This document shows, piece by piece, positions 1 through 16,680 of a stretch of 16,680 nucleotides of DNA. This DNA comes from Promethearchaeota archaeon (GTDB lineage Archaea > Asgardarchaeota > Lokiarchaeia > Sigyniarchaeales > SOKP01), in contig JAFGOA010000007.1 of the NCBI GenBank assembly GCA_016926735.1, positions 1-16,680 on the forward strand. The letters are read 5' to 3'. A program made the position numbers and the translations under genes. The number at the start of each line of letters is the position of its first letter. Positions within the stretch are counted from its first letter, which is position 1. The notes under the pieces were generated by a model. It ran no database searches and was not told the DNA's origin. It worked only from the letters and a program-made list of their open reading frames with translations.

Positions 1-175
1 ATAAGTATTTAAGTTAATCTAGATTTTGAAGTAATTGAATATAAAATAATAAGTTAAAAATACAATGAAACATCAAATTATGATAAATTAACTTTTTATA
101 TTAATAATTACTTTTCTTTTTAGGGTATCTGATAATAATAAAAATCAATAATATAAAAAAAAGTTTTGTAAAAAA

Positions 176-913
176 ATGGCCAGCAAATTAATTGAGCTAA
201 GGAACATATCAGACCAAAGATTACCTCATCATATTGGAATTATTCCTGATGGAAATAGAAGGTGGGCTAAATTAAACAACCTCAAAACAAAAGTTGGCCA
301 TCTTAAAGGATATAAAAGTTTAAAAAAGATTCTCTATAGTTTTTTTGATGCAGGTATACAATATCTAACCGTATATGCTCTTTCTTTAGAAAATGCTCAA
401 AAGAGATCTGAAGAAGAATTAAAATATATTTATAAAATTATCATTAAAGCGATTAATACGATAATAAAAGGGGAAGATACAGTAAAAAATGAGGTAAGAT
501 TCAGAGTAATAGGTAGAACTGAATTATTACCTGAGTATGTTCAAAAAAAAGTAAATGAATTACATGAATTTACAAAAAATTTCAAGAAAAATTTTGTTAA
601 TTTACTCATTATGTATGATGGACAAGCAGAAATAGCAGATGCTATAAAAAAAATCATAGCGGATAATATTAATCCAGATTTAATCGATAAAACTTTAATA
701 AAAAAATATTTATATACTTCCGACTTTCCTGAAGTTGATCTAATTATAAGAACAGGTATGAATGATGGTGCAAGAATCTCAGGATTTTTGCTCTGGGATG
801 CTTCCTATTCTGAATTTAAATTTAGAAATGAGTATTGGCCTCAATATAATGAAGACCTTTTATATCAAGATCTACAAGAATATGCCTTAAGAAATCGAAG
901 AAAGGGAAAATAA
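176..913 (+). CDS. uppS: cis-prenyltransferase (undecaprenyl/polyprenyl diphosphate synthase family)
   Basis: Family motifs PHHIGIIPDGNRRWA, GHLKG, YALSLEN..KRS, DLIIRT...RISGFLLW...YSE and C-terminal RRKGK (RxG); 245 aa is typical. Confidence 0.95.
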   Translation: MASKLIELRNISDQRLPHHIGIIPDGNRRWAKLNNLKTKVGHLKGYKSLKKILYSFFDAGIQYLTVYALSLENAQKRSEEELKYIYKIIIKAINTIIKGEDTVKNEVRFRVIGRTELLPEYVQKKVNELHEFTKNFKKNFVNLLIMYDGQAEIADAIKKIIADNINPDLIDKTLIKKYLYTSDFPEVDLIIRTGMNDGARISGFLLWDASYSEFKFRNEYWPQYNEDLLYQDLQEYALRNRRKGK

Positions 914-1087
914 ATATCTTTAAAATTATCATATTCTTACTAATAACTCTAATTTCTATGAATTTTTAGTTTATGTAGCTTATTATTAATTATTTTATAA
1001 TTTATTTTTTGAAAATACGCATAGTTAAATTCCTTAACTCGATATTATAAATAGAAAGTAAATTTATATTCTAAATTTTGAAAATAA

Positions 1088-1101
1088 AAATTTATAAATT
1101 T
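1088..1101 (+). promoter_or_regulatory. candidate archaeal TATA box (TTTATAAA, 1091-1098) with A-rich upstream flank
   Basis: TTTATAAA lies inside the palindrome AAATTTATAAATTT about 50 nt before the ATG at 1147. Weak, given the AT-rich background. Confidence 0.35.
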
Positions 1102-1146
1102 ATTTTAATTAATGTAAGAATTAAATACTCATTATTTTAGATAATT

Positions 1147-2934
1147 ATGTCTATCTCTGATACAAGTAAAAATATTCTTCTCAAAATAGCCCAATTACCT
1201 CAAAATCTACTTATACCTAAGATTCAAAATTTATTAAAAATAGAATTAATAAATTCATCAAAAAATGAAGAAAATGTTAAATTAGAATTAAATTCCGATA
1301 ATCTTAATTTTCAATTTTTGGATAATGCTACAAATCCAATTGTATTGAAACCAAAAGAGACCAAAATAGTAAATATTAATATTATTCCAACTGGAAATGG
1401 TATTGCAAAATTAGATATAAAAGGCATATGGACTAAAGAAACTCAAGTAAAAGTAAAAGTTCAGAAAATAAAGGAGAATATTAATGGAACGAAACTTAAC
1501 AATATTTTAGAAAATTATCATTTTAAAAAAAAAGATTATTTAAAGAAATTTGACCCTATAGAATTTTTAGTAGAATTAGATAGAAATGAATTCAAAGCTT
1601 TAGAAAAATCATTAATTGAAAGTCCTGGGAATGAAAATGAAAAAGATCTGATAAAACTAGCAAAAGCATATTTATCAAATAAACAATTCGAAAAAGCTTT
1701 AATAACAGCCAATAAAATTCCTAAAGAAAAACATAGATTAGCTTTCTTACAAGATTTGATTAGAGCATATGCTTTTGTTGACACTCAATATGCTATTAAA
1801 TATATAGATAGTTTAGGAAAAAAAATAAATAAATCAGAATTTTTAAAAACTATTGCTTTAGATGAAGTATATAAAAATCCAGATATGGCCATCAATATTG
1901 CATCAAGGATAGATGATATAAATATAAAAAAAGAATGTTTTATAGAAATTATTCAAAAAATCGTTCAAGATAAACCTGATACTACAATAGAACTAATGAA
2001 ATATATCCAAATGGATGTTGAAACATATTTAAGTATCATGTTAAATATAATTGAAAGCTATTGGCGTTTGGGAAATTTAGAAACAACAAAAGAATATCTT
2101 CTAAGAGTAATCTATTTTGTAAAAGATAAATATAATTCAAATAATTATAAGTTCATTAGAGATTCAATTTATGCAATGGCAGAATTATTTACTCCTAAAA
2201 TTGCTGATAATTTGATTGAATCGATTGAAGACCAAAGATTAAAGGAAAGAATCGCAAAAGATTTGTTTAATGATATTTATTATTTAGTTGAGGAAATTCA
2301 AACAAGAATTGAAACAAAAATATTAGCTTCTTTTCAGTATCACTTAAATACCTACTCCTCTAATATTAATGAACATATAATTAATTTTGCACAAAAAGGT
2401 GGTAATTTAAGTTTAAACACACTTTCAGGCGATACTAATTTTAATAGTTTATTTATTTCATTATTTAAATTTGATTTTAGCGTTTTTCCCATTTTTGAAC
2501 ATTTATATTCAGATTTAAAATTAAATTCAAGCAAATCAATAGCATATTATATTTTTCCCTCATCAGAAAATATGAATCAGAATGAATATGATATCATCGT
2601 TAATACCTTAAAATTTCTTATAACCTCTAAAATAAGCAATACTAATCAATTCAATGTATTTAATATTGATTTTATTCCCTATCTTGGAAAACCTACTCTT
2701 ATCATAGGTTCTGAATATCAATCAATAATACAATGGATTGAAAATAAACTTTCTAGTATGAGGAATAAAATAGATATCATGATAGATGATAATTTTTTTG
2801 CTGGAGGAAAATCAAAAAATCAATTAGCAGAAATTTTCGAATCAAATAGGTTTAGAATAATTAATTTAATTCTTTCTTATGAATTTATTAACGATTTTAA
2901 TATATTTAAAGAGTTAGTTCAAATTTTAATTTAA
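1147..2934 (+). CDS. hypothetical protein: N-terminal Ig-like beta-sandwich, central TPR-like/alpha-solenoid repeats, C-terminal alpha/beta domain
   Basis: 595-aa ORF. LKPKETKIVNINIIPTGNGIAKLDIKG is an Ig/CARDB-like pattern. LIKLAKAYLSNKQFEKALITANKI and PDMAINIASRIDD are helical-repeat patterns. No signal peptide or TM seen. Confidence 0.75.
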   Translation: MSISDTSKNILLKIAQLPQNLLIPKIQNLLKIELINSSKNEENVKLELNSDNLNFQFLDNATNPIVLKPKETKIVNINIIPTGNGIAKLDIKGIWTKETQVKVKVQKIKENINGTKLNNILENYHFKKKDYLKKFDPIEFLVELDRNEFKALEKSLIESPGNENEKDLIKLAKAYLSNKQFEKALITANKIPKEKHRLAFLQDLIRAYAFVDTQYAIKYIDSLGKKINKSEFLKTIALDEVYKNPDMAINIASRIDDINIKKECFIEIIQKIVQDKPDTTIELMKYIQMDVETYLSIMLNIIESYWRLGNLETTKEYLLRVIYFVKDKYNSNNYKFIRDSIYAMAELFTPKIADNLIESIEDQRLKERIAKDLFNDIYYLVEEIQTRIETKILASFQYHLNTYSSNINEHIINFAQKGGNLSLNTLSGDTNFNSLFISLFKFDFSVFPIFEHLYSDLKLNSSKSIAYYIFPSSENMNQNEYDIIVNTLKFLITSKISNTNQFNVFNIDFIPYLGKPTLIIGSEYQSIIQWIENKLSSMRNKIDIMIDDNFFAGGKSKNQLAEIFESNRFRIINLILSYEFINDFNIFKELVQILI

Positions 2935-2987
2935 TATTAATTAAGCTAAAAATCAAAAAAAAAAACACAATTTTTTTATTAAAAAGA

Positions 2988-2993
2988 AGGAGG
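2988..2993 (+). promoter_or_regulatory. Shine-Dalgarno-like AGGAGG
   Basis: AGGAGG just upstream of the ATG at 2996; the 2-nt spacing is unusually short. Confidence 0.45.
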
Positions 2994-2995
2994 AT

Positions 2996-4645
2996 ATGAT
3001 TAGATTGGGTAGTAAGAAAAAACAAAAAAAGGAAAAAAAGTCGAAAAAAAGTAAAAGTCAGGCTGTAAAACTTTCTAAATCTTCAAAAAAAGTAGGACAA
3101 ATAGGGCGTCAAATAGATAGATCTCATGATCGATTATTTTTAGGTACGGATTATAGAGAAGTTTTTATTGATGATAGAACTTGGGGCGAAATTTTAATCG
3201 ATGTTCAAAATTGGACAAGATTACCTTTTTCTCACGGGATGGAAATGGAGTTAATTATTGCAGATGATAATGGAAATTATCCTAATGGAGATGAAATGGT
3301 TTATCGTATGAGAGAAATAGTAAAAGATGCAATTGTAATAATGGATCAAATTTTATACGAAGGAAGATCAGACTTTTATCCTGTTCCAGATTATATTAGA
3401 CAAAAAGTTTTAGCAAGACCATGGGGTAAAGAAGATATAGAAAAAGGTTATGTGATGGACATTCGATATCAAATTGGTAATTATTCCGTAGATATCGATA
3501 CTTTTGGTAGAGATGGTAATGTAACAGCAATTACTTATATTTTAGAACTAGTAACTCCTCCTTGCGAATATATAGAAGAACTTGCTTACTGGGCAAGTAC
3601 ATTATTTTTACTAGCTAAAAACACTCTTCCCAAAGATTTACATATAATTGCTTCAGCAGTTAATCCTTCTTCGCGGGAATATCAAAGAGGACTAACTCAA
3701 GGAGATCATCATCATTTAGGTGGTTTTGAGTCTGAAGTTGAAAAAGTTCAAGCTTATTCTATGATTAGAAATTTTATCCCTCACTTAATTGCTTTATCTA
3801 CGAATTCACCAATTATCAATAATCGTCCTACAGATGTAGTGAAAGTAATTAATGGTAGAATTACAGCTCCAAATTGTGTTAGATCTTTAAGATTAAAAAA
3901 TAATGCATCTATGTTAAGTAACAATGATCCAAGACATTATATCCCATATTTGTCATCTTCGGATATGAATGCTCAAAATATGTTTTTGCAGATCGTAGCT
4001 AAAGCAAGTATGGAGGATGCGCGTTTCCAAGATCTCTTTCCATTTACTGATTGGGGAACTATTGAATTACGTGTCTGTGATGCTCAAATTTCAATTTGCA
4101 GACGTATTGGAATAGGCCTAATAATACAAGCTCTTTGTTATAAAGCTAAAAAATTTGTAAAACATAAAAAATGGGTTCCTGATGTAGGAAGTGAAACAAT
4201 TACTTTTAATCGTAAGGGAGCTATAGAGAGAGGTCTTATTTCTGCTTTCAAAACAGATTCTAATCTAAAATATGATAATTTAAAAAAATATGATCCTAAT
4301 TTTGCTGAACAATATTTGGGTCCATCAAATGAACCTACAAGATATATGATGCAAGCTGTTCAAAGATTATTTTTTTATATTAGAGATGAATTGAAAGAAT
4401 TAGGATTTTTATACTCTCCTTTTTTAAAACCATTATTACAAAGTGTTTTTGGAACTATAAGTTATGCTGAACCTCCAATTACAGAAGCAGAATATCAGTT
4501 GTCATTATATAATCATAAATTAACAACTGGTGAAAATACAAATATTTTATGGGATTTAATATATTTTACAGTTGTTTATTGTCAAGATCCTATAAACAAT
4601 CCTTTAACAGGAATATTGACATTACCAAAAGAGATGAGAATTTAG
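2996..4645 (+). CDS. glutamate-cysteine ligase family 2 (GCS2/YbdK-like) ATP-dependent carboxylate-amine ligase, divergent, with Lys-rich N-terminal tail
   Basis: Ordered GCS2 motifs: GMEMEL (ExE), LELVTPPC, GDHHHLG (HxH), PHLIALSTNSP, WGTIELRVCD (ExR). Confidence 0.88.
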   Translation: MIRLGSKKKQKKEKKSKKSKSQAVKLSKSSKKVGQIGRQIDRSHDRLFLGTDYREVFIDDRTWGEILIDVQNWTRLPFSHGMEMELIIADDNGNYPNGDEMVYRMREIVKDAIVIMDQILYEGRSDFYPVPDYIRQKVLARPWGKEDIEKGYVMDIRYQIGNYSVDIDTFGRDGNVTAITYILELVTPPCEYIEELAYWASTLFLLAKNTLPKDLHIIASAVNPSSREYQRGLTQGDHHHLGGFESEVEKVQAYSMIRNFIPHLIALSTNSPIINNRPTDVVKVINGRITAPNCVRSLRLKNNASMLSNNDPRHYIPYLSSSDMNAQNMFLQIVAKASMEDARFQDLFPFTDWGTIELRVCDAQISICRRIGIGLIIQALCYKAKKFVKHKKWVPDVGSETITFNRKGAIERGLISAFKTDSNLKYDNLKKYDPNFAEQYLGPSNEPTRYMMQAVQRLFFYIRDELKELGFLYSPFLKPLLQSVFGTISYAEPPITEAEYQLSLYNHKLTTGENTNILWDLIYFTVVYCQDPINNPLTGILTLPKEMRI

Positions 4646-4663
4646 AAAAAGAGATATATTATA

Positions 4664-6211
4664 ATGTTAGTTGCGAATATAGAACAAAATGGTAAAAAAA
4701 ATATAGAAAAAATCTTTGTAATTGATGCTCATTCTCATTTAGGTACTGATATAGATGGAGCATCAATGATGAATCCTCTTGCACCAGGGACAGGAACATT
4801 TGATTTCTGGTCTAAAATTCAAGGAAAAATAGTTGATGATTGGAAAAAATCAGGAAATCAATCATTTTCAACAGTTATAGATAACCAAAGAACCAATATC
4901 TCATTTTCATTTGAGGGTCATCCCTTTACAGAGAGCTTATTTGAAGAACTAGAAAAACTTGGAAAAAAATATTCTGAAATAAAAGAAAAATTGAAATTCA
5001 ATAAATTTATTGATCAAGCTGTTGTTTTTCCATTTCAAGATGTTTTTCGAGATAAAATGCCCGAAGCTTTATATCATGCAAGTAATCTTAATATATCTCG
5101 TTTTACAACTCGTTTTCCTTTTTCTGTAAAATTAATTGGATATGCTCGAGTTGACCCTATGGAGGGAGAAAAAGCTGTTAAAGAGGTTAAATATGCAAGA
5201 GAAATCTTGGGTCTTCGTGGATTGAAATTACATCCTCGTTCTGAAGGATGGGTTGAAAAAGTTACTTCTGATAGACCAATTCCTATTCTAATGGAAGCAA
5301 TTAGACATTCAATGCCTATAATTTTTGATACAAGGGGTAAAAAGACAATTATGGATATAAGTGAATTGATTAAATCAACTAGAAATTACTTAATGAGTAA
5401 GTTACCTCAATTATTACCTCATTTTAAAGTAATAATTGCACATTTTGCTCAAGGAAATGTAGGAGACCAAGAAGTATATAATGCAATTGTTCAACCAAAT
5501 ACTTATGGTGATTTATCGATGCTTCATGGTGAGGGTGCTAAAAACTTTTTAATTGATTTTAGAAGATGGTTTACTTCTCATAATAAACATAATATAGACA
5601 ATAGAGATTGGTCAGAATATCTACTATTTGCAACAGATTATCCTTATTTTGGAGAAGTTCATGCCGAAAAATTATTAATCCAATTGATCAATAAAGAGTT
5701 TTATGATAATGGTGGTAAATTGATAGATACTAAGAATATTCTTGGTTTAAATCTACTTAGAATTCTCCCAGAATATAATCTAACTCAGATGGGTAAATTT
5801 GAGAAGAATTTGACAACAACAATAATAAATACACCACCTTCAAAAGATAATAAAAACAATGCATTGAAGACTGCCTTAATTGCTCTTTCGAATCTAATTG
5901 CTGATAATAAAATAGATATAAAAAACATGATACTTGAATTTAATCAAAATTGGAATGAATTAAATGATAATATCTTATTGACTACAATAAATCCTAATAC
6001 AAATGCAGAAATACCCTTGTATTTAAATAATTTTGTTAATAATAGAATATTTTTACTGGCTCCACTTAAATATTATATTAGTTTAAATAAATTTGGAAAT
6101 AAATATTTCACACCTGAAGTGAGAAATTTTTTCTCAAATCTTTTTAGGAATTATTATGTAGCCAAAGATATAAAAGAAGTAGAGAAAGGTTTAACACAGA
6201 TTTTTAATTAA
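4664..6211 (+). CDS. metal-dependent amidohydrolase (TIM barrel, Amidohydro_2-like) with extra C-terminal domain
   Basis: IDAHSHLG (HxH), YARVDP, GLRGLKLHP, VIIAHF, LLFATDYPY and ILGLNLLRIL at the barrel end; about 145 further residues follow. Confidence 0.88.
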   Translation: MLVANIEQNGKKNIEKIFVIDAHSHLGTDIDGASMMNPLAPGTGTFDFWSKIQGKIVDDWKKSGNQSFSTVIDNQRTNISFSFEGHPFTESLFEELEKLGKKYSEIKEKLKFNKFIDQAVVFPFQDVFRDKMPEALYHASNLNISRFTTRFPFSVKLIGYARVDPMEGEKAVKEVKYAREILGLRGLKLHPRSEGWVEKVTSDRPIPILMEAIRHSMPIIFDTRGKKTIMDISELIKSTRNYLMSKLPQLLPHFKVIIAHFAQGNVGDQEVYNAIVQPNTYGDLSMLHGEGAKNFLIDFRRWFTSHNKHNIDNRDWSEYLLFATDYPYFGEVHAEKLLIQLINKEFYDNGGKLIDTKNILGLNLLRILPEYNLTQMGKFEKNLTTTIINTPPSKDNKNNALKTALIALSNLIADNKIDIKNMILEFNQNWNELNDNILLTTINPNTNAEIPLYLNNFVNNRIFLLAPLKYYISLNKFGNKYFTPEVRNFFSNLFRNYYVAKDIKEVEKGLTQIFN

Positions 6212-6298
6212 AATTAAATTAATTTATTAAATAATGATATTAAATTTCTATCAGGGATTGTAAAAAAAAAATTATATTTTATACAAATTTGCATTGAA

Positions 6299-7015
6299 GT
6301 GATACAAATGACTCAAGAAGAAAATGATAATGAACAAAGTGAATTTTCAACTAATGATAATATTGTTAATTTTGAAGAAAAAATAAAAAAATATGAAGAA
6401 GATTTAGAAGAAAAAAATCAATTAATAAATAATCTAACTACAACAAAATCAGATTCCGATGATAAAATTAATGAACTAAATAAGAATATTAAAGAACAAA
6501 CTCTAATAATCTCTGATTCAAGAATCGAAATTAATGAATTAAAACAAGAATTAGAAAGAAAGAATATCCAAATCCAAGATATTGAAGAGAAAATACATGA
6601 AATCAACGAAAGAACCAAAAATGAAGCTAAAAATAATGAAGAAAAAATAAAAAATTTGCACAATGAGTTAGAAAATAAAAATAAAAATCTAATTTCACTT
6701 GAAGAAGAATTATCATCAATAGAAAAATTAAAACAAAATAATGAAGTTTTGAAAAAAGAACTCGAAAAACAATTAAGAATAAATAATGAATTAGAACAAA
6801 AAATAAATGAATTGAAAACAACGTCCGATAATTATCTAGAAAGTTTAGCTAATTTCAAATTAGAAATTAAAGCAATGAAAAACCTTGAAGACTCTAACAA
6901 AGATAATCAAGAGAAAATAGATGAAGAACTAATAGAATTAAAAAAAGAAGTTAAAGTACTTAGAAGAGAAAGAGATCATTATAAAAAAATAGTAACTGAA
7001 AATAAATTACTGTAA
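6299..7015 (+). CDS. long coiled-coil protein (start may be ATG 6308 rather than GTG 6299)
   Basis: Almost entirely E/K/N/L/I heptad sequence with no Pro, Gly, Cys or Trp; ends LKKEVKVLRRERDHYKKIV. Confidence 0.8.
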   Translation: MIQMTQEENDNEQSEFSTNDNIVNFEEKIKKYEEDLEEKNQLINNLTTTKSDSDDKINELNKNIKEQTLIISDSRIEINELKQELERKNIQIQDIEEKIHEINERTKNEAKNNEEKIKNLHNELENKNKNLISLEEELSSIEKLKQNNEVLKKELEKQLRINNELEQKINELKTTSDNYLESLANFKLEIKAMKNLEDSNKDNQEKIDEELIELKKEVKVLRRERDHYKKIVTENKLL

Positions 7016-7021
7016 TTAGTC

Positions 7022-7028
7022 TTTTTTT
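7022..7028 (+). terminator. oligo-T archaeal terminator candidate
   Basis: T7 run 6 nt after the stop at 7015. Confidence 0.45.
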
Positions 7029-7144
7029 CCAAAATATAATTTATTCTTAATTGATAAATGATTCTTCATTGTTTTTCTTGAAATTATTTACCATTCTATT
7101 TTTTCCTATGATTATTTATGATATATTCCAGATAAAAACATATT

Positions 7145-7168
7145 TTTATATAGAAAATTTTTCTATAT
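7145..7168. promoter_or_regulatory. TATA-like TTTATATA overlapped by a perfect inverted repeat ATATAGAAAA-T-TTTTCTATAT
   Basis: Arms at 7148-7157 and 7159-7168 are exact reverse complements; TTTATATA at 7145-7152; upstream of the roadblock gene. Confidence 0.5.
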
Positions 7169-7244
7169 TATAATAATAATAATTTTTAAGTAATAACGGT
7201 ATAAATTAATATAATAAAAAAAAAGATTGGAGTAAAAAAAAAAC

Positions 7245-7700
7245 ATGAGTGTTGATACTAAATCTTTTGATAATATTTTAAGTAAAATAATCAAATCAGA
7301 AAGCGGAATTAAAAAAGTAATTTTAGTTGATAGAACGGGATTAACAATTGCGAGCGTATCAAAATTTTCATATTTTCCCGCTGATGTTGACGGAATCGGA
7401 GCAATAGCTAGTGCTGTTTTCTGCGCTAGTGAAGAACAAGGAAAAAATCTTGAATTAGGAGCCCTAGATATCGTTACAAGCGAATTCACTGGTGGAAAAA
7501 TATTTGCTGCGAGTTGTGGTCCTAAAGGTGTTTTGTGCTTGATCTCTGATCCAGATATTAATATAGGATTAATTAGATTGATTTTGAAAAGATCAGGTGA
7601 TGAATTGCGAGAAATATTAGATGAATTCCTCTCTGAAGTTCCTGATACTCTTGATTCAGGATTAGATCTAAGCGATCTAGATGAATTGACACCAGATTAA
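7245..7700 (+). CDS. roadblock/LC7 (MglB/LAMTOR-like) domain protein with acidic C-terminal extension
   Basis: GIKKVILVDRTGLTIAS, IGAIASAVFCASEEQGKNLELG, SEFTGGKIF and INIGLIRLILKR match the Robl/LC7 pattern; GGAG upstream. Confidence 0.93.
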   Translation: MSVDTKSFDNILSKIIKSESGIKKVILVDRTGLTIASVSKFSYFPADVDGIGAIASAVFCASEEQGKNLELGALDIVTSEFTGGKIFAASCGPKGVLCLISDPDINIGLIRLILKRSGDELREILDEFLSEVPDTLDSGLDLSDLDELTPD

Positions 7701-7707
7701 ATTCAAA

Positions 7708-7714
7708 TTTTTTT
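7708..7714 (+). terminator. oligo-T archaeal terminator candidate
   Basis: T7 run 7 nt after the stop at 7700. Confidence 0.45.
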
Positions 7715-7928
7715 CATCTAATTTTTAAACCTACTTTTGTATATATTTAATTTAGGATAATATTATCGAGTTAAATAATTACTGGCTTTTAAGGATTAAC
7801 AAGATTTTTATACTTGATAAGTATTTATAATTATATTCTTATTAATGTATAAGATACTATAATTTATACTAAATAATTTATTCAATTAATTTCAAACTAA
7901 TTAGATTATAAATTTTAAGTGAAAAATT

Positions 7929-10808
7929 TTGAATCAAAATAAAAAATTAAAAGGATTATTGCTGATTTTCTTATTTATTGTTCCATTGTTTTTTACAATT
8001 TACAAAATATTTCCTTTAAATGATACATTAAAAAATAATATTATAAGAAACTCTGGAAACGAAATTATACCGTCAAGAGATTGGATTACAAATGGAAATT
8101 TAGATAATACAGATTATTGGATAATAGAAAATGGAACTGGAGGAGATACAAATGATATAAATGCTGATATCTCTGGGGGAGAATTTAATAGTAATCTTCT
8201 TGGAGATTGGGGTCAAAAGTCTGTTATCTTAAATTCCTCTGCATCTGAATATAATCAATGGGATACATTTATTAAGACTGGAGAACTTCTGCAACCAGAT
8301 AATTATGGAATAGATTCAACAGGTGTTTGGTGTAATCATAATTTCGATGATAATGCAGCAGACCAAGTTCCAATTATTCATTTCAAAAGAGAAGTAATGA
8401 TGGATCAACCTATGGATGACTATGAAATTACTTCGGCTTCTTTAGAAGTACATATTGATGCTGAATGTGACCTAAATATCGATACACCGCAAGACTATAT
8501 TGATGGAAATTCAGCTAATCAAGCTCAAAATCCTATAGATAACCCACAGAGTTTTGATTTTTGTAAATTTAATGTTGAGATTTCGGATTTTAATACAAAT
8601 GATCTTAATACTTATGAAATGGGATCTAATCAAACTGTTGAATTTGGATATGGTGATCCTCCTTCTTCTCCAGATTTTGCATCTGATTATCTTACTGGAT
8701 TTATGGAAATTAAAGATCAACAAACAATTATTGATGCGTTAACAAATGTTTTCAGTGTGCATTCTACAAATTTTACGGTCATCATCGGAATATTTATCAA
8801 TTGTGCAGATAATTATGGTGGTCAAGAGAGGGATTATTGGAGAAATTTAAGTATAGATTACCTAAATTTAACAATTACTTATGAAAAGGTTATTGATCAA
8901 TCCACAAGTATTAGATTATATCAAAATACTGGAAGTTTTTCCCAAGATCTTTCTGATAATGGATATTCCAGTTATAATTCCTATTCTGTAGATCTTGCAA
9001 GATTAAATTTTACGTATAAAGTTGATCCTTATTGGCCTTCTGATTCTCAAAATTCAGACGTAAGAATTTCCTTGAATAATGGTACCACTTATGTTTCCCA
9101 AAAATTAATATTAGCAGATACCAACCCCTCAGATATAAGTTGTAATTTAATCGATTTAATCAAAGGTTTAGATGATATTGAAGTGTCAATTATAATATTT
9201 ATTGCAGATGAATTTAATTTGAATGAAACTATTGAAGTGTCTATTGATTCGATATCTCTAGAAATTGAATATACGGTATACTTCGATGATTATTCTACCT
9301 CAATTGAAGTTGATATAGATGGTCAACCTTATATAGGTCTTATTCATATTCCCGTTTTTCGTGAATTAGATATAGTAGTTAGGTATTTAAATGATACCCT
9401 CGGGGCTATATATGGTGCTGATGTAATATTATCGGGAGATGCAGTTGGAGATTTAACACCTAATGGGGATCATTATGATATTAAATTAAATACAACAGAA
9501 GATCTAAGTATAGGGTTAAATACAATAACAATTGAAGCGACAAAAAATAATTATTTACAAAGTGATACAATAATAAATATATATGTTGACCCTATTGATG
9601 GTGAAATCTCTGGTTATAGTGGTAATTTTGTTAGTAATGAAATATATGTAGATACTGGTGTTCTTGAATTTATTGAACTCTATCTCAATGATACGGATAA
9701 TAATCTCCCAATCATTGGGGCTACAGTAACCTATACAGGAGGTTTAGGGAATGGGATCTTTACAGATCCTAATAATGATGGTATTTATAACGCAACGATT
9801 ATAGCACCTTCACCTGGGTATTTCTCAATTACAGTTAGCGCAGTTAAAGGTCCTGATTATGATATTAGTAATTATCAATTTGCTATTGATGCTTCTACAC
9901 CAGGATTTTCTGATGCTAATCTTACTTTGTTTATCAATAATGAAGAAATAGGCTCAGGAGGATCTTTTTCTATATCTTCACTGAGAAATATTAATATCAC
10001 CGCTATATTTATTAATGCAACAGATGGTGATCCTATAAATAGCGCAGATATAGAATTAAGGGTTAGTGGAGGAGGTCAACTAATTGGAGAATTATCAGAA
10101 ATTTCTGGATATTATGAACTTCAAATTAATTCAACAAATGATTTAGATTTAGGAGTACAATTATTAACCTTAACTGCAACGAGAAATTTTTTTAATCCTG
10201 AGGATATAGACTTTAACATTGAAGTTCTTCGAATTCAAACCGAACTCTCCCTCAATAATATAAACGGAACAACACTATCGGTTATTTCTGGAGGAAATGC
10301 ATTTATAGAAGTAGTACTTAATGATACGGATAATAATTTACCTATTATCGGAGCTACTGTAACTTTTATTTGGGATCAAGGAAGTGGAGTGTTATTTGAT
10401 CTTGATGGAGATGGAATTTATAATACTACCATTATAAATATTCCTGAAGGAAGTTGGGATATCACAATCAGTGCTGTAACCCAAGCACAATATTATGCTT
10501 TTAATCCCTTAATTATGCATATTGATAGTAGAGCCCCAGTTGGAGCCGATCCAATACTTTATATCATAATTACTGCTATACTTGGGATTGCTGTAATTGG
10601 ATTGGGCACATATTTTGCTATTTACCAAAAAATATTGAAATATCCTCCAACAGTACGAAAGATTAGGAAATTAAAAGGGAAAATCGGTAAAGGTAAAAAG
10701 CCCAAATCTGTTGATTTTGATAATCGAACGAGTTATATAAAAGAAATATATGAAGAAAATAAGATTTTTGCACAACCAGTATCATACAAAACTGAAATTA
10801 AAAAATAA
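7929..10808 (+). CDS. large membrane-anchored cell-surface (glyco)protein with Ig-like repeats
   Basis: TTG start; KKLKG followed by a hydrophobic signal/TM; D/N/T-rich beta ectodomain with about 20 N-x-S/T sequons; C-terminal TM (ILYIIITAILGIAVIGLGTYFAIY) then a basic tail KYPPTVRKIRKLKGKIGKGKK. Confidence 0.88.
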   Translation: MNQNKKLKGLLLIFLFIVPLFFTIYKIFPLNDTLKNNIIRNSGNEIIPSRDWITNGNLDNTDYWIIENGTGGDTNDINADISGGEFNSNLLGDWGQKSVILNSSASEYNQWDTFIKTGELLQPDNYGIDSTGVWCNHNFDDNAADQVPIIHFKREVMMDQPMDDYEITSASLEVHIDAECDLNIDTPQDYIDGNSANQAQNPIDNPQSFDFCKFNVEISDFNTNDLNTYEMGSNQTVEFGYGDPPSSPDFASDYLTGFMEIKDQQTIIDALTNVFSVHSTNFTVIIGIFINCADNYGGQERDYWRNLSIDYLNLTITYEKVIDQSTSIRLYQNTGSFSQDLSDNGYSSYNSYSVDLARLNFTYKVDPYWPSDSQNSDVRISLNNGTTYVSQKLILADTNPSDISCNLIDLIKGLDDIEVSIIIFIADEFNLNETIEVSIDSISLEIEYTVYFDDYSTSIEVDIDGQPYIGLIHIPVFRELDIVVRYLNDTLGAIYGADVILSGDAVGDLTPNGDHYDIKLNTTEDLSIGLNTITIEATKNNYLQSDTIINIYVDPIDGEISGYSGNFVSNEIYVDTGVLEFIELYLNDTDNNLPIIGATVTYTGGLGNGIFTDPNNDGIYNATIIAPSPGYFSITVSAVKGPDYDISNYQFAIDASTPGFSDANLTLFINNEEIGSGGSFSISSLRNINITAIFINATDGDPINSADIELRVSGGGQLIGELSEISGYYELQINSTNDLDLGVQLLTLTATRNFFNPEDIDFNIEVLRIQTELSLNNINGTTLSVISGGNAFIEVVLNDTDNNLPIIGATVTFIWDQGSGVLFDLDGDGIYNTTIINIPEGSWDITISAVTQAQYYAFNPLIMHIDSRAPVGADPILYIIITAILGIAVIGLGTYFAIYQKILKYPPTVRKIRKLKGKIGKGKKPKSVDFDNRTSYIKEIYEENKIFAQPVSYKTEIKK
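9687..10337 (+). repeat. intragenic duplication with a period of 633 nt (211 aa)
   Basis: AATGATACGGATAATAAT is identical at 9687-9704 and 10320-10337; the peptide LNDTDNNLPIIGATVT...DGIYN.TI occurs twice. Confidence 0.9.
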
Positions 10809-10815
10809 AATCTAA

Positions 10816-10824
10816 TTTTTTTTT
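10816..10824 (+). terminator. oligo-T archaeal terminator candidate
   Basis: T9 run 7 nt after the stop at 10808. Confidence 0.5.
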
Positions 10825-10958
10825 ACCATTTTTAAAGAGAAAAAAAACTAAAACAAATAATATGATTATAATTAATTTGTAATAATGGAAGAATACAACA
10901 TTGTAAAAAAAGAATAAAAATTAAAATAAAATTATAATGAAAATAAAAAGTGAATTAA

Positions 10959-12089
10959 ATGTCAAAAGGATTTATTATTACAAAATGGACAGAAGATAGA
11001 GGTTTAGTAATCCATTTAAAATATCCAGAAACGATAAATGTTGATCTTGATGATATGATGAGGATTTTCTATGCTCATATTACTGGTGCTGGAGAAGCTG
11101 GTTATGTTGTTGTTCGTTTAGAAAAGGCACAATCTAATGTAGCAAGTTATTTTACAGGAATAGATTCTTCTAATCCTTATATGATTAATTTAATGCTTGA
11201 ATTAGGTGAGGATCCAGAAACATATGGTGAAAAAGTAATAAGAGATATCTATTATGATATTTTAAAATACCTTTTAGAAATGGATAAGGATATGTATAAG
11301 GCTCCAGAATTAATTAAAGAACTCAAAGTATATCTTAGAGAAACGATGATTTTGTTAGAAAGATTAAAAAATCTTACAAAAGAACAAAAAATGGCACAAA
11401 TTTACACTGGCGAGAAAACGCGAAAGATTTTACAATTGCTTCAACAAAAAGCTATGTCAAGAAAAGAATTACAAAATAGATTAGAAGATCAGTTAAAAAA
11501 AATCATAACAAATTTAGATATTACTTTAGAACCCTTTATTAAAGCAGACTTAATAAAACAAGATTGGGTTGAAAGAAGTACTGATGTCCATATATTTCTA
11601 CAAAACGATTTTACAATATTTCGGGGTACTCCTAAGAAGTTGATGAATGAAGCAAAAAAAGATCAACCAACAAATTATCTTGCCAAACAATATTTAAAGA
11701 AAGTTAGAGAATTTTATAATGGATATACACCTACTTTTGAAGATAATATAAAAATTGCATCACATATGATTAATCCAGATACTTATGATTATATTGCGCT
11801 TCTAAGAGATAAACCATATCCATTGAATAAACTTCCAAAAAGTTCTGGTTCAGTTGCTAAACAAACTGCAGATTTGCTCTATAATTTAGAACAAGACAAT
11901 ATCATAAGTATAATAGAAGATGAAAAAGATATTAAATGGGTATTTTTACTTTCAGATATTATCGTTCAAAATTTCTATCCAGAATATTTAGTTGAAAACA
12001 TTCGAAAGGATTTTGTAGGTGGAGATTTGAGAAGAGAAATTGCAACTAAACATCTTGAAATTTTAGAAACTGCATATCCAAAATCATAA
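10959..12089 (+). CDS. hypothetical protein: longin/uDENN-like N-terminal domain plus two winged-helix-like repeats
   Basis: N-terminus GFIITKWTEDRGLVIHLKYP (beta-hairpin ending in YP), then helix, three strands, helix. Internal repeat HIFLQNDFTIFRGTPKKL / WVFLLSDIIVQNFYPEYL 116 aa apart, each after an HTH-like segment. ORF certain, fold inferred. Confidence 0.7.
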   Translation: MSKGFIITKWTEDRGLVIHLKYPETINVDLDDMMRIFYAHITGAGEAGYVVVRLEKAQSNVASYFTGIDSSNPYMINLMLELGEDPETYGEKVIRDIYYDILKYLLEMDKDMYKAPELIKELKVYLRETMILLERLKNLTKEQKMAQIYTGEKTRKILQLLQQKAMSRKELQNRLEDQLKKIITNLDITLEPFIKADLIKQDWVERSTDVHIFLQNDFTIFRGTPKKLMNEAKKDQPTNYLAKQYLKKVREFYNGYTPTFEDNIKIASHMINPDTYDYIALLRDKPYPLNKLPKSSGSVAKQTADLLYNLEQDNIISIIEDEKDIKWVFLLSDIIVQNFYPEYLVENIRKDFVGGDLRREIATKHLEILETAYPKS

Positions 12090-12122
12090 AAATAAATAAA
12101 ATATATACATATAAGATAAAAA

Positions 12123-14030
12123 ATGAGTGAATCTGAGAAGTCTTCAACAAGAAGAGTTTTAGAACGTTTAGGTTTAGTTCAAGATGAAATTAATGTTTAT
12201 TTTAAAATAACAGGAAGAGGTCCAGTGACAGCAGGCGAAATTGCTTTAATCTCTAAAATTGAAGAAAAAAGAGCTAATGAAATTGCATTAAATTTATTAG
12301 ATAAAGGATTAGTACGAAAAATAGCTGGCAAAACACCTCATTTTATGGTACTACCTCCTTATACCGCATTATTAGGACAAATTAAACAATTTAAAGATGT
12401 AGTATCTAATATTCAATCTTATGCGCCTCAATCTTTAAAAGAAAGACTTCAATCAATTGAAATTGACTCCTCTCAAATTCAAAAATTAGGTGAATTCCGA
12501 AATACAATTCATTCAATGAGTGAAGAATTACCAAATAAAATCAAAGCACAATTTCAAAATTATGAACAAGAGTTAGAAAAAGTTAAACGCTTTAATGAAA
12601 TTAAAAACTTTATAAATAGCCTGAAGGAAATAGTACCAGACGATATAACAAAAGAATTTGCTAAAATGGAAAGTAGAGTGGAAGTTATTAAAAATGAAAT
12701 TTCTAGTGCATTTGAAACTCAATTTCGCGTAGGTGCCATTAAAAATATGGCAGAAAAGATTGTTGCGCGTGTAATGAAAAAAGAATTTAATGAAATGGTT
12801 AATTCTTTTAAATTTAAATTTGTTCAAACAACACAAGGAATGTTGGATAAAGTTATTAATCAATTAGGAGGGCTTTCTAATACCGCTGGAGATATAAAAG
12901 TAGGAATAGGAGATACTATAGCCAATATTGAATCTGGATTACAAACAGCTTTAGGGAATTTAGATAATGAAATTATCAAAATATACGAGGATGTATTAAC
13001 AGGTATACAAGAATTAAAGAATTCTTTTGAGCAAGAAATCTTTAAAACACTAAATCAAGATGTAATAATTAATATTTTTGATCAATTGGATTTATCTGAG
13101 AAAACAATGGAAGAATTTTTAGAAACAGAAAAAGAAGCTCCTATGCTCTCTTTTCAAGATGTGTGGTTTGTAAGAAGTTCTGAAGGTATGAAAGCTCAGA
13201 TAAATGAATCTATATCTCGAATTAAAATGAGAGCACATATTATTGCGCCAAAACTTGAAGATATTGATATTGATATGATAACTGGAGTTTCAAACCATGT
13301 AAATGTTCGAATATCTACTAATTTTGATATAGATAATCAAAAAGATAGAATTATAATATCAAGATTGGAAAAATATCCTAATATTGACCTACGTCATTAT
13401 GGTCGAGAGAATATTTGGTCAATCAATAAAGATTTTGAAGAAGTTGTAGTTTGTGTTGTAGCAAAAAATCGAGAAGGTACTCAAGTTGAAATTGCGGGGA
13501 TGGGATCTATATTAGAAGAGCATGTAAAATTATTTGCTGGAATTTTAGAGGATGTTTGGATTCAAAGTAAAAAATTAGATCAAATTAGCCTGACTCAAAC
13601 ATATCATCCTGTAAAACCAAGTATAAAACCTTCAGAAGTTCAAAAAGTTCAAGAAAAAATACCTGCTTCTTCACCAGCGCCAAATATTACACAACCTAAA
13701 CAAGAAGTTATACAACCAGCTCCTACATCTTTTATTCAAGAATCATCAAAAATTTCTTCTGAAGATTTTCAATCATTAGAAACTTTATCTGAGTTATTTA
13801 ATCAAATTGAAAAAAATATAACTTCATTAACCGGTATTGAGGTTAGCTCTATTTTAAACAAAGCCAAAGTAAGAGTAATTGAGCAACATGGATATTCAAG
13901 TGTATTGAATCAAATTAATTTAAGCATAGCCCAATACCAAAGCATTAGTTCTAACTTGCATCAATCAGAGATAAAAGAAATTAAAAATAAACTTAAGTTC
14001 TGGAGAAATAAACTCAAAATTAAAAAATAA
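12123..14030 (+). CDS. TrmB-family wHTH protein with long amphipathic helical region, PLD-like/TrmB effector-type domain, Pro/Gln linker and C-terminal helical bundle
   Basis: LERLGLVQDEINVYFKITGRGPVTAGEIALIS...LLDKGLVRK...LPP is a TrmB-HTH pattern. WFVRSSEGMKAQINESISRIKMRAHIIAP is typical of the following PLD-like domain. No HKD motif. Confidence 0.8.
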   Translation: MSESEKSSTRRVLERLGLVQDEINVYFKITGRGPVTAGEIALISKIEEKRANEIALNLLDKGLVRKIAGKTPHFMVLPPYTALLGQIKQFKDVVSNIQSYAPQSLKERLQSIEIDSSQIQKLGEFRNTIHSMSEELPNKIKAQFQNYEQELEKVKRFNEIKNFINSLKEIVPDDITKEFAKMESRVEVIKNEISSAFETQFRVGAIKNMAEKIVARVMKKEFNEMVNSFKFKFVQTTQGMLDKVINQLGGLSNTAGDIKVGIGDTIANIESGLQTALGNLDNEIIKIYEDVLTGIQELKNSFEQEIFKTLNQDVIINIFDQLDLSEKTMEEFLETEKEAPMLSFQDVWFVRSSEGMKAQINESISRIKMRAHIIAPKLEDIDIDMITGVSNHVNVRISTNFDIDNQKDRIIISRLEKYPNIDLRHYGRENIWSINKDFEEVVVCVVAKNREGTQVEIAGMGSILEEHVKLFAGILEDVWIQSKKLDQISLTQTYHPVKPSIKPSEVQKVQEKIPASSPAPNITQPKQEVIQPAPTSFIQESSKISSEDFQSLETLSELFNQIEKNITSLTGIEVSSILNKAKVRVIEQHGYSSVLNQINLSIAQYQSISSNLHQSEIKEIKNKLKFWRNKLKIKK

Positions 14031-14065
14031 ATATTAAAGATATCTTTTTATTTTTATTTTCTATT

Positions 14066-15148
14066 TTAAAAGAATTCTAAATTATTGAATCCTAATAATT
14101 TTTCTAAAACACTTAAAATATCATCTTTTTTACCAATATATGCTAATAATTTATGTTTAGCTCTAAGAATTGATTTATTTTTTTCTGTTTTAGGAGGATT
14201 GAAATGTAATTCGATTTCACCATAAGATAATTTTTTTTCATTTGAAGATTTCGAATTATAAGCTTGTATTATTCCTTTTTCAAGATGTTTGCGTTCAGGA
14301 TTCCTAGGGAGATCATAACAATCTTTTTGAGATCTTGGAAGGTCATCTGATAATTTTACTAATAATCCATAATCTTCTGTATTTGGAATTTTTAGATAAT
14401 ATGTTATTTTAGCCTTATTAGAAAAATTTAGGTCTTCTGGACGGATACCCAATTTATATATTTTTGAAACATCGATTTTAAATGCAGTGTAATTCTTTTC
14501 TATTTTTAACATTTCTTCTGGTATATTTTTAATATAAGATATAGGATTTGCTTTTTTTATTGTGGGTATTATTACTGTACCTGGGTTATCTTTACCTCCA
14601 CTTATAACATTTGCAATATTCCAAATATTGATTTTTAGATCAGGCTTATTTAATATACATTCTTCATTGATTTCAATACCTATATAGTCTGCTTCTGAAG
14701 ATATTGGATTATCAACTAGGGATATAGTTCTTATTATTTTTCCTTTATATGTTTCTCGTGAAATATAATTCTCTATAACAATTTCAGATTCTAATTTGCA
14801 ATTATTTGAATTTTGTTCCTTAATTTTATAATATGCCGGATCTAAACCAGATTGACAATTCCATTTTTTCCATTTTTCAGGTTTTTGAAAGAAATAAGCT
14901 CTTTCCGGACTAAGCCAATGTCTATCTCCCCCAATTTCTCTTTCTCTAGATATAATTTTTTTTTTAATATCTGACGTTATCCATAATAATGAAAAAGATT
15001 CATTTTTTGGGAATATTCCTAAAGGTCTTCCACCATATTCAGATACAATGACGCTACTTTCATCATTATTCCTCAATTCTACATATTTTGTAACTTCTTT
15101 AATTGAAGATAAAAGTTGGTCTTTAGTATAATAATTAATATACATCAA
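14066..15148 (-). CDS. hypothetical beta-rich protein, possibly galactose-mutarotase-like supersandwich (DUF6786/DUF4380-like); ATG at 15145 is the likely start
   Basis: VSEYGGRPLGI...LLW...GGDRHWLSPE pattern, RTISLV strand, C-terminal YGEIELH; convergent with the TrmB-like gene across 35 nt. Confidence 0.65.
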   Translation of the reverse strand: MMYINYYTKDQLLSSIKEVTKYVELRNNDESSVIVSEYGGRPLGIFPKNESFSLLWITSDIKKKIISREREIGGDRHWLSPERAYFFQKPEKWKKWNCQSGLDPAYYKIKEQNSNNCKLESEIVIENYISRETYKGKIIRTISLVDNPISSEADYIGIEINEECILNKPDLKINIWNIANVISGGKDNPGTVIIPTIKKANPISYIKNIPEEMLKIEKNYTAFKIDVSKIYKLGIRPEDLNFSNKAKITYYLKIPNTEDYGLLVKLSDDLPRSQKDCYDLPRNPERKHLEKGIIQAYNSKSSNEKKLSYGEIELHFNPPKTEKNKSILRAKHKLLAYIGKKDDILSVLEKLLGFNNLEFF

Positions 15149-15272
15149 AAAAAGAAATATTGTAAATTATTTAATTTTCTCTATACAACTAGTTAGATAA
15201 ATGGAATATTAGAGATTATTATCTATTAAATATTTAAAGAAATTACAAGACATTAAAGAAAGTGATAATATC

Positions 15273-16025
15273 CTATTTCTCATTTTTTTTTTGAAATAAT
15301 TTTTTTATTGTTAATGATAATGTTTCATCAAAGGCCTGACCTTCAACTGAGCATTTAAATGGTAAATCATTTGAAAGAAATAATTCTTTGAAATATCCCA
15401 GCCAATAATTACTATATCTTTTATTTTCATGATGTTTACAAACTACGTGGTATTGGTCATTTGCTAATTTTTTAACATCTACAAAATAAAAATAGTTTGC
15501 TACAATCCACATTTTTTTTATTGCTTGAATAATTTCTTCCAAAGATAATGCATTTATTGGTTTTCCTGTTACCCATAAAATAACACCTAAAGCAATATTT
15601 CTTTTCATTGGCTTATCTAAACTTTCTTCTGGTGTTTCAGCAGCAGTTAATAATTGATTGAATGTTGTTTTTCCTATTAGCATCATTTGTAATTCATCTC
15701 TAGCTCTACACCAAAGGTCAATATCTTCAGAACGCTCTAAATTTTCATGTTTATCTAATAGTTTTATAGCATTTTCAAATAATTTTGTTTCTGTCTTATA
15801 TTTATTTTTGTATTTTTCAATTATACCCGCAATTTCAGGTGATAAGCTCTTAATACTATCGTATAAATCGATTGCTTCTCCTATAATATAAGATATAGTT
15901 TTACCCTCATCTTTATATTTATCAATAATATCTCTCGTTTCATTTGAAACCTTAACATAAATTGGTGTAGTCTCTGAATTTTGTTTATCTTCTAATTTCT
16001 CTTTTTTTGTCGACACATCTTTCAA
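15273..16025 (-). CDS. putative transcriptional regulator: N-terminal ribbon-helix-helix-like tandem repeat plus V4R-like C-terminal domain
   Basis: PIYVKVSNETRDIIDKYK...TISYIIGEAIDLY is an RHH pattern. C-terminal YHVVCKH..KRYSNYWLGYFKELF..FKCSVE..TLSLTI has V4R-like topology. Start is TTG 16025 or GTG 16016. Confidence 0.65.
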   Translation of the reverse strand: MKDVSTKKEKLEDKQNSETTPIYVKVSNETRDIIDKYKDEGKTISYIIGEAIDLYDSIKSLSPEIAGIIEKYKNKYKTETKLFENAIKLLDKHENLERSEDIDLWCRARDELQMMLIGKTTFNQLLTAAETPEESLDKPMKRNIALGVILWVTGKPINALSLEEIIQAIKKMWIVANYFYFVDVKKLANDQYHVVCKHHENKRYSNYWLGYFKELFLSNDLPFKCSVEGQAFDETLSLTIKKLFQKKNEK

Positions 16026-16365
16026 CTCTATAATTTGAAATGGAAAATTTGAAATTTATTTACCTCAATATATTATAGATGATCTATGTTCTTATATTTT
16101 ATCATATTAACTTATAAATTTTTTGATTGACCTCGACAAAAAATGAATTTTTTCAATATGTCCTCTTCAATCTCTGCCATATTTTTTTATATTTCGACAT
16201 ATGATGATTTTAGGATTTAAATCAATATATCAATATATATTATCTGGTCTCTATACCCTTTGATTATGATGATTGTAAACGAATCGAAATATTTATATAC
16301 TCTCCTATATATTCTAATATTGAAACATATAATAGAAATATACTAAAATATATGAGCATATAAAA

Positions 16366-16587
16366 ATGTCAAAATTTAATCAAACATTTAAAATTTCTGA
16401 AAAAAAAATGAGAGATTTCAGTTATAATTTAACTTTAAAAGATCCATACAAAATAAAAGCAGAGAATATCAATTCCTATGATGTAAACTATTATTGTGAA
16501 TATTGTGGAGAAAACCTAACAAAAGATATGAAATTTTGCCCTATGTGTTATAATCCTATTAAATCAGAAATAATAAGAAAAAAATAA
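16366..16587 (+). CDS. small zinc-ribbon protein
   Basis: CEYCGENLTKDMKFCPMC = C-x2-C-x10-C-x2-C; ATG start; divergent from the RHH gene. Confidence 0.8.
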   Translation: MSKFNQTFKISEKKMRDFSYNLTLKDPYKIKAENINSYDVNYYCEYCGENLTKDMKFCPMCYNPIKSEIIRKK

Positions 16588-16680
16588 AGAAAATTATTGA
16601 AGAATTCTTATGGTTGGATTTTATATGACATATTATTTTGGTAATAAATAAAATTAAAAAAATAAAAAAAAAAAAAAAAA

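Follow-up and report, generated by a model that had tools for sequence, protein, structure and literature searches.

What do an amide-forming ligase and a metal-dependent hydrolase, encoded side by side, do together in an Asgard archaeon? The question is raised by a stretch of 16,680 nucleotides from a Promethearchaeota archaeon (GenBank assembly GCA_016926735.1, contig JAFGOA010000007.1, positions 1 to 16,680; hereafter the window), in which a ligase gene is followed, in the same orientation, by a hydrolase gene. An initial annotation, made from the letters alone, had placed the two genes 18 nt apart, as the open reading frames (ORFs) bear out, and had proposed that the pair writes and erases a gamma-glutamyl or isopeptide modification on a metabolite or on proteins, possibly the products of the flanking genes. 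Far from being a local accident, the pair turns out to supply the enzymes at the heart of a conserved module, and we weigh here what that module may do.

A module in two archaeal phyla

We searched 201 genomes of the phylum, related by descent and hence not independent samples, with cut-offs that we set at 1e-3 for the ligase, 1e-10 for the hydrolase and 1e-20 for a third protein, which combines a Cdc48-N with a vWA domain. Matches to the ligase occur in 100 genomes; for the hydrolase the figure is 99 and for the vWA protein 101. Both enzymes occur together in 97 and neither in 99, while all three proteins are found in 94 and none in 96. One ligase count (G096) is a weak match, the end of a contig there holding a ligase fragment beside the hydrolase. 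By family, the module is present in nine and gives no match in 18. Among 41 related genomes, 36 have the ligase and the same 36 a strong match to the hydrolase, only weak matches being found in two more. The pair is thus conserved across Asgard genomes, a point on which the initial annotation had made its proposal depend, and its relatives carry the names Promethearchaeota or Lokiarchaeota.

Counts for close loci refer to the best 80 of 419 named loci, with denominators that vary with the DNA available. The hydrolase lies directly 3' of the ligase in 46 of the 73 loci with enough DNA (gaps of 2-196 nt); in a further 22 unrelated genes intervene between the two, and in the remaining five, with 1.3-2.9 kb of downstream DNA, the hydrolase was not seen. 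The spacer is thus a site of insertion, occupied in these 22 named loci by HEPN/MNT and PIN pairs, a CitMHS transporter, URO-D/corrinoid genes and a GTPase.

The Cdc48-N/vWA gene emerged as the third recurrent gene when the neighbours at 40 loci were clustered, and an intact MIDAS motif is present in 47/47 of its copies; none of the genes shared by different groups in these neighbourhoods is metabolic. Gene order and orientation are shuffled between groups while the genes remain close, and trees built from 25 loci for the ligase, hydrolase and vWA protein agree on the groups, in which families f10 and f21 contain two paralogous modules, but differ in deep branching. In the cultured Promethearchaeum syntrophicum MK-D1 all four module genes, including the partner gene upstream of the ligase that is described below, lie within 9 kb (locus L116), the vWA gene being 1.3 kb upstream of the partner gene. 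The genome studied here has its vWA gene outside the window (contig C202, 7913-9904, minus strand). Two kinds of fusion further link the parts of the module, one of vWA and ligase (P0179) and one that joins a degenerate Cdc48-N/vWA to a dead hydrolase.

Several observations were made around these genes. On C202 (L092:1840-11379) the vWA gene is co-oriented with gelsolin-like, roadblock-like, ACT, actin-family (E 3e-45) and PLD-like genes, and a broken fragment with two stops, which matches the end of the vWA gene at 73% identity, is present at C93:12311-12583. Proteins uniting a catalytically dead hydrolase, a Cdc48-N and a MIDAS-less vWA domain adjoin an active pair (L072:14134-16770, L062:12971, L076:9492, L184:519). 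A Cdc48 gene stands beside the module in one f21 locus (L090:15025-17223) and E2 ubiquitin-conjugating genes lie a few kb from it in family f29 (L063:2673-3143, L067:13868-14332); both may be chance. A contig labelled Nanopelagicaceae bacterium (L157), with a 74% identical ligase, is probably a mis-binned archaeal contig. An RNA run covering L116 is uninformative on co-transcription because its reads assemble into one 25-kb contig with uniform coverage, the pattern expected of DNA, and a scan for sigma-70-type sites, using a bacterial-type model unsuited to archaea, gave 37 sites as compared to 52 in shuffles.

Beyond the Asgard archaea, a profile search returned ligase-family members named Thermoplasmata archaeon, and a metagenome scan gave 24 loci (two near-identical, several of Asgard type), with the hydrolase in 10 and the vWA gene in 17. 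Five loci (L173-L177) share an order of hydrolase, one or two small genes and a membrane-anchored ligase on the opposite strand, followed by a vWA gene in L173-L176, while L177 ends before that point; their ligases are 42-54% identical to a Thermoplasmata-named protein. In 5/5 of these Natronoplasma-type loci the genes between hydrolase and ligase encode ubiquitin-fold proteins. The fold is N-terminal in all nine such small genes; of five scanned, three match Pfam ubiquitin (best E 1.5e-7, above cut-off), one Rad60-SLD and one nothing, and 2/12 homologues are named Ca. Natronoplasma, a genus of Thermoplasmatota. None of the nine has a di-glycine end or a conserved terminal Glu (Glu/Gln end in 1/9). 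Their second domain has a counterpart within the N-terminal region of the ligases of Natronoplasma type (hhalign 95.4%); an equivalence to the C-terminal domain of the hydrolase did not hold up (hhalign 0.1%). Since Cdc48 N domains bind ubiquitin-fold adaptors, the arrangement suggests that these proteins bridge the ligase and the vWA protein rather than act as tags. The clustering of ligase, hydrolase and vWA gene in Thermoplasmatota (Ca. Natronoplasma) is a new finding, and the module is therefore present in two archaeal phyla.

A second divergent operon type (L191, L193-L196, L071) consists of the hydrolase, a 222-aa gene, two vWA genes and the ligase, and continues with two membrane coiled-coil genes, an AAA+ ATPase and DUF1257, with BrxL upstream in L193. 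Giant helical-repeat proteins of 2200-3900 aa carry a ligase at their end and are flanked by vWA genes (L178-L181; P0161, P0168, P0177, P0182), and a 365-aa short-loop relative of the ligase follows a run of beta-propeller genes at L192:740-11113.

Active sites of the ligase and the hydrolase

The ligase passes the cut-off of the Pfam GCS2 family (PF04107; E 1.6e-5, 24.9 bits against 21), with only 50 residues aligned. Its predicted structure (predicted local distance difference test score, pLDDT, 94) superimposes on YbdK (PDB identifier 1r8g) with a Z of 33.3 and a root-mean-square deviation of 2.8 over 330 aa (Foldseek E 5e-15); the next-best folds are plant GCL (Z 26.6), then GshAB, Dop and PafA (Z 19-21). 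The active-site residues E83/E85, D173, E184, H238/H240, R299, R343, E357/R359 and D362 are present and kept in 55-61 of 61 aligned rows, the misses at E83/E85 being mostly gaps in partial sequences. According to the available text of PMC2588565, the GS/GCS superfamily is marked by GhExE in strand 1, acidic residues in strands 2-3, HxH in strand 4, two Arg and ExRxxD in strand 6, and the ligase holds every residue of the list given there. The catalytic domain starts at about residue 70, behind a Lys-rich tail with 14 K within the first 45 aa. A YbdK orthologue is ruled out by the NCBIfam YbdK/GshA models (TIGR02050, PRK13515-13518), for which the best score of 46.8 bits is far below the cut-offs of 176 and 371.

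The most telling difference from YbdK is a deletion: the profile of the ligase family shows a gap of ~21 residues across 'neRYqrtlenfg', and the loop before G-D-H-H-H is 11 residues long in the window ligase. Among 150 library matches the loop could be measured in 96 (54 being unmatched by the motif): it has 16 residues or fewer in 90, of which 86 have an acidic residue preceding HxH, and 31-32 in six. The invariant Arg299 of the ligase aligns with plant Arg292, and the Arg at this position is, we take it, the one that binds the alpha-carboxylate of glutamate. A long-loop match aligns the RY helix with 'KGRYDIM' of plant GCL, and by alignment count (offset 65, checked on Tyr186 and Glu193 of PMC6463388) the Arg of this helix is plant Arg220, located, in the available text of that paper, at the end of the tunnel on the cysteine-pocket side. 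Because Arg299 is conserved and the RY helix deleted, glutamate is likely retained as the donor, to judge from the alignment, while the acceptor site is opened and altered. Plain gamma-Glu-Cys synthesis is unlikely since the ligase family is without the helix that lines the cysteine pocket, and an outcome that would have told against the initial annotation, an ordinary gamma-glutamylcysteine synthetase, is not borne out. A FastTree analysis of 82 chosen rows (midpoint root, SH-like support) places 52 of them, with every Asgard main-type and Thermoplasmata-type ligase included, in a single group (SH-like 99), outside which the six canonical long-loop proteins fall.

In other gene orders the ligase has a tail of ~500-900 aa that appears beta-rich by eye, with weak Ig-like Pfam matches in 2/6 scanned; its fusion partners serve interaction or anchoring, being such beta-rich tails, giant helical repeats, zinc ribbons and membrane anchors. 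Other GCS2-type ligases (P0246, P0247, P0252, P0260, P0256) have apparent tandem Cdc48-N-like or cold-shock-like repeats, again by eye.

Genome-wide searches rest on a completeness of 99%. The ligase is single-copy and the sole GCS2 match. Pup_ligase (PF03136) has no match anywhere in the genome, and the strand-6 motif of the ligase is ExRxxD, not [QH]x4D. PF02951 (GshB-N), PF03781 (FGE/EgtB-type) and PF01019 (GGT) likewise find no match in the genome, and its two PF02955 matches over cut-off are ATP-grasp proteins of RimK/LysX type. Within the window, none of the 11 proteins taken into Pfam and NCBIfam scans is a glutathione synthetase or ergothioneine gene product, as first annotated. The missing glutathione-pathway, Pup ligase and FGE/EgtB-type genes are weak evidence on the role of the ligase; for GshB this is because archaeal GshA has been reported without GshB matches (PMC7278568, available text).

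The hydrolase, also single-copy, passes the Amidohydro_2 cut-off (PF04909; E 1.1e-6, 29.1 bits against 26.4) and is modelled as a TIM barrel (pLDDT 93.6). Its metal ligands H23, H25, K188, H190, H260 and D325 are invariant in 50/50 rows, as is Arg162, so that the motifs of both enzymes, noted at the outset, prove to be conserved across their families. Position 222, where a further His is usual, is Asp in 45/50 rows, including the window protein, and His in 4/50. The closest solved folds are two uncharacterised barrels (3nur, Z 22.2; 3cjp, Z 22.0) and LigW (Z 21.6), and IDCase, ACMSD, LigJ, LigY, TruffO and AibH1H2 are further top matches; isoaspartyl dipeptidase (Z 18.3) and enamidase (Z 17.7) match as well. 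The ~140-aa C-terminal domain has no known family and no usable match in the structure atlas. The residues thus describe an active-looking metalloenzyme, for which we infer amide hydrolysis; its role as an eraser is putative because the closest solved folds are decarboxylases, hydratases, lactonases and oxygenases.

The upstream partner and the flanking genes

The gene upstream of the ligase (Table 1) is the fourth part of the module. It adjoins the ligase in 73/75 loci, and its C-terminal 205 residues match small genes located directly 5' of the ligase in other Asgard groups (hhalign 96.5%, E 8e-10). This partner domain is present in 85/201 genomes and undetected in 15 other neighbour groups and in families f24 and f29. 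The protein otherwise gives weak Pfam matches to Cep192_D4 (E 0.006) and TPR_19 (E 0.008), and comparison of its N-terminus with the ligase tails reached just 26% in hhalign (E 7e-4). A likeness of the partner domain to N-formylglutamate amidohydrolase (FGase), which is at rank 2 in the ESM atlas (score 0.88; FGase on 27% of that cluster), may be taken as only a lead; none of 25 members of the domain has a Pfam FGase match, nor a sequence match in the PDB. What looks like a partner-ligase fusion in G216 results from a gap in the assembly.

The neighbours had initially been described as a solenoid, a coiled coil and a roadblock protein and considered as possible substrates. The description is accurate as far as it goes, the upstream gene adding beta-sandwich-like and alpha/beta domains, and of the candidates only the upstream gene belongs with the enzymes; the coiled-coil gene is kept in 24/55 close loci and the roadblock gene in 20/55, neither persists beyond close kin, and neither is part of the module. 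Further downstream (7929-14030) the window encodes a membrane-anchored 959-aa Ig-rich surface protein, a 376-aa protein of no known kind and a 635-aa TrmB-HTH/coiled-coil/PLD-like protein, genes that are conserved only in close kin.

Table 1. Coordinates in the window of the partner, ligase and hydrolase genes and of features within and between them
Feature	Position	Strand	Description or basis
Partner gene, 595 aa	1147..2934	+	Beta-sandwich-like N-terminus, TPR-like helices, ~205-aa alpha/beta domain at the C-terminus
Partner C-terminal alpha/beta domain	2317-2931	+	Homologous to small gene 5' of ligase in other Asgard groups
GCS2/YbdK-fold carboxylate-amine ligase, 549 aa, own family	2996..4645	+	PF04107, model, fold match
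Short loop before G-D-H-H-H strand, residues 221-240	3656..3715	+	~21-residue 'RY' helix of YbdK/plant GCL absent
Intergenic spacer, 18 nt, purine-rich stretch	4646..4663	+	Sequence
Amidohydrolase-superfamily TIM barrel (~residues 17-371) and ~140-aa C-terminal alpha+beta domain, 515 aa	4664..6211	+	PF04909, model

Function of the module

The reading that we favour, tentatively and as something just short of probable, is that the module performs reversible gamma-glutamylation of proteins, with ATP-dependent transfer by the ligase, removal by the barrel and targeting by the Cdc48-N/vWA protein and adaptors. Going by the chemistry of its family, the ligase would use ATP to phosphorylate the gamma-carboxylate of glutamate and join it to an amine, and its anatomy points to a protein lysine or N-terminus rather than cysteine as the acceptor, because the lid helix of the acceptor pocket is gone. 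The target would be brought by Ig-like, TPR, coiled-coil or ubiquitin-fold modules together with the Cdc48-N/vWA protein; the metal barrel would hydrolyse the gamma-glutamyl amide again, and a carboxylate, either of the mark or of a partner, may be what the vWA MIDAS binds. With rather more reserve, the module might be viewed as an archaeal post-translational modification system in which a GCS2-derived ligase writes gamma-glutamyl or protein-protein lysine isopeptides, a TIM barrel erases them and the Cdc48-N/vWA protein reads or delivers via Ig-like or ubiquitin-fold adaptors. The original idea of a written and erased gamma-glutamyl mark thus gains an intact ligase and a genomic context that favours protein over metabolite substrates, while its eraser is unproven.

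Several points weigh against protein gamma-glutamylation. No Pup-like donor was found in the searches. In the models, the ligase has far higher fold similarity to metabolite ligases (Z 33 for YbdK, 26.6 for plant GCL) than to PafA/Dop (Z 19-20), and the best structural matches of the hydrolase are not amide hydrolases. GCS2-like ligases encoded beside a peptidase, without a Pup-like ORF, have been argued to make small peptides (PMC2588565, available text). The ubiquitin-fold genes are seen only in Natronoplasma-type loci; near Asgard modules no ubiquitin was found among 59 proteins scanned (38 of 83 listed small ORFs, larger neighbours and inserted genes). Unrelated genes split the pair in the 22 close loci mentioned above, ligase and hydrolase are not neighbours in family f4, and kinship of the genomes inflates the co-occurrence counts, which overstate the association.

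The same nearness of both enzymes to metabolite enzymes in fold would suit a protect/deprotect cycle on a small molecule, in which the ligase gamma-glutamylates an amine metabolite, a lipid head group or a cofactor precursor, the hydrolase releases it and the other proteins scaffold or localise. PMC2588565 offers a precedent in its available text, and 49/57 close loci have UppS upstream, accompanied in family f1 by nearby genes for HMG-CoA synthase and reductase. These isoprenoid genes are, however, confined to f1, no oxidoreductase, transaminase or transporter recurs across groups, and the Cdc48-N/vWA protein, Ig-like arms and ubiquitin-fold genes are left unexplained, so that we consider such a cycle rather unlikely, though the best of the alternatives.

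Alternatively, the two enzymes may act in sequence rather than in opposition, so that a ligated protein or small molecule is then tailored by the barrel through decarboxylation, hydration or oxidation. The top fold matches of the barrel, from IDCase and LigW to AibH1H2, would fit this reading, Asp222 replaces the usual His and the invariant Arg162 could bind a carboxylate. The complete ligand set H-H-K-H-D-H-D is retained, however, and Z values of 18-22 cannot separate reaction types when isoaspartyl dipeptidase and enamidase match too; we regard this explanation as unlikely.

Ligation of protein to protein through an isopeptide (Pup-like, with a ubiquitin-fold or small-protein tag, or as a Glu side-chain cross-link), feeding a Cdc48/AAA+ machine, is slightly more doubtful still. 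It would account for the ubiquitin-fold genes of L173-L177, the Cdc48-N domain of the vWA protein, the weak Cdc48-N-like repeats on ligases P0246, P0247 and P0252 and the AAA+ gene in the second operon type (L191, L193, L194), and the Pup ligase is itself derived from GCS2 according to the available text of PMC2588565. A suitable tag is hard to find, however: a terminal Glu/Gln occurs in 0/25 partner proteins, 5/50 hydrolases, 1/9 ubiquitin-fold proteins and 8/47 vWA proteins, none of 711 ORFs of 60-130 aa in the genome ends in G-G/A-E/Q, the ubiquitin folds are without a di-glycine end, and there is no Pup_ligase match. A plain gamma-glutamylcysteine synthetase beside an unrelated neighbour would fit the ligase being the sole GCS2 match in the genome, and absent GshB is no exclusion given that archaea can use GshA alone (PMC7278568, available text), but the missing cysteine-pocket helix, the NCBIfam scores and the coupling with hydrolase and vWA gene in two phyla make it very improbable.

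Comparison with known systems delimits what is new. YbdK and other GCS2 proteins (PF04107, TIGR02050; 1r8g, 1tt4; plant GCL 2gwc) share the fold, GxExE, HxH, two Arg and ExRxxD with the window ligase, which has 16-20% identity to them, differs by the missing RY helix and added inserts and belongs to a family with fusions to interaction domains and fixed partners. The hydrolase has the barrel and HxH...K-x-H...H...D metal site of Amidohydro_2/COG2159 proteins (3nur, 3cjp, LigW, IDCase, ACMSD, LigJ), with which it shares 13-19% identity and from which it is set apart by Asp222, inserts and its C-terminal domain. PafA/Dop (PF03136; 4bjr, 7oyh) likewise combine a GS-fold ligase with a remover, likely gamma-glutamyl-lysine chemistry and an AAA+ link; the remover is a ligase paralogue in pupylation and a TIM barrel here. 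The comparison that the initial annotation had proposed, with GCS2, Amidohydro_2 and PafA/Dop, thereby shows likeness to the first two, whereas the PafA/Dop profile is unmatched and the fold similarity lower. PuuA/PuuD and EgtA/EgtC are gamma-glutamyl protect/deprotect pairs. These, as well as the pairs of a ligase with an amidotransferase-like peptidase or cyclotransferase in the available text of PMC2588565, place ligase and hydrolase in one operon, as here, but the hydrolase fold is another in our module, and protein-interaction partners take the place of conserved pathway enzymes and transporters.

The enzyme folds and the ligase-hydrolase pairing are thus already known; should the module tag proteins, the system would be new. 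The open full-text literature, a scope that leaves subscription papers and supplements largely aside, yielded no description of the module; the ligase family could already be listed in the supplement of PMC2588565 or in the amidoligase survey of Iyer et al. 2009. The module is present in about half of the searched Asgard genomes, mostly as one well-conserved copy, and its genes are now labelled 'hypothetical' or mistaken for glutathione-pathway genes. As MK-D1 is cultured and carries it, the module is directly testable. If proteins are modified, it would show that protein tagging arose a second time from GCS2 ligases and would give the lineage closest to eukaryotes an extra layer of signalling or quality control; and if the proposed system is real, many Asgard lineages and Thermoplasmatota would possess a third isopeptide-tagging route beside ubiquitin and Pup.

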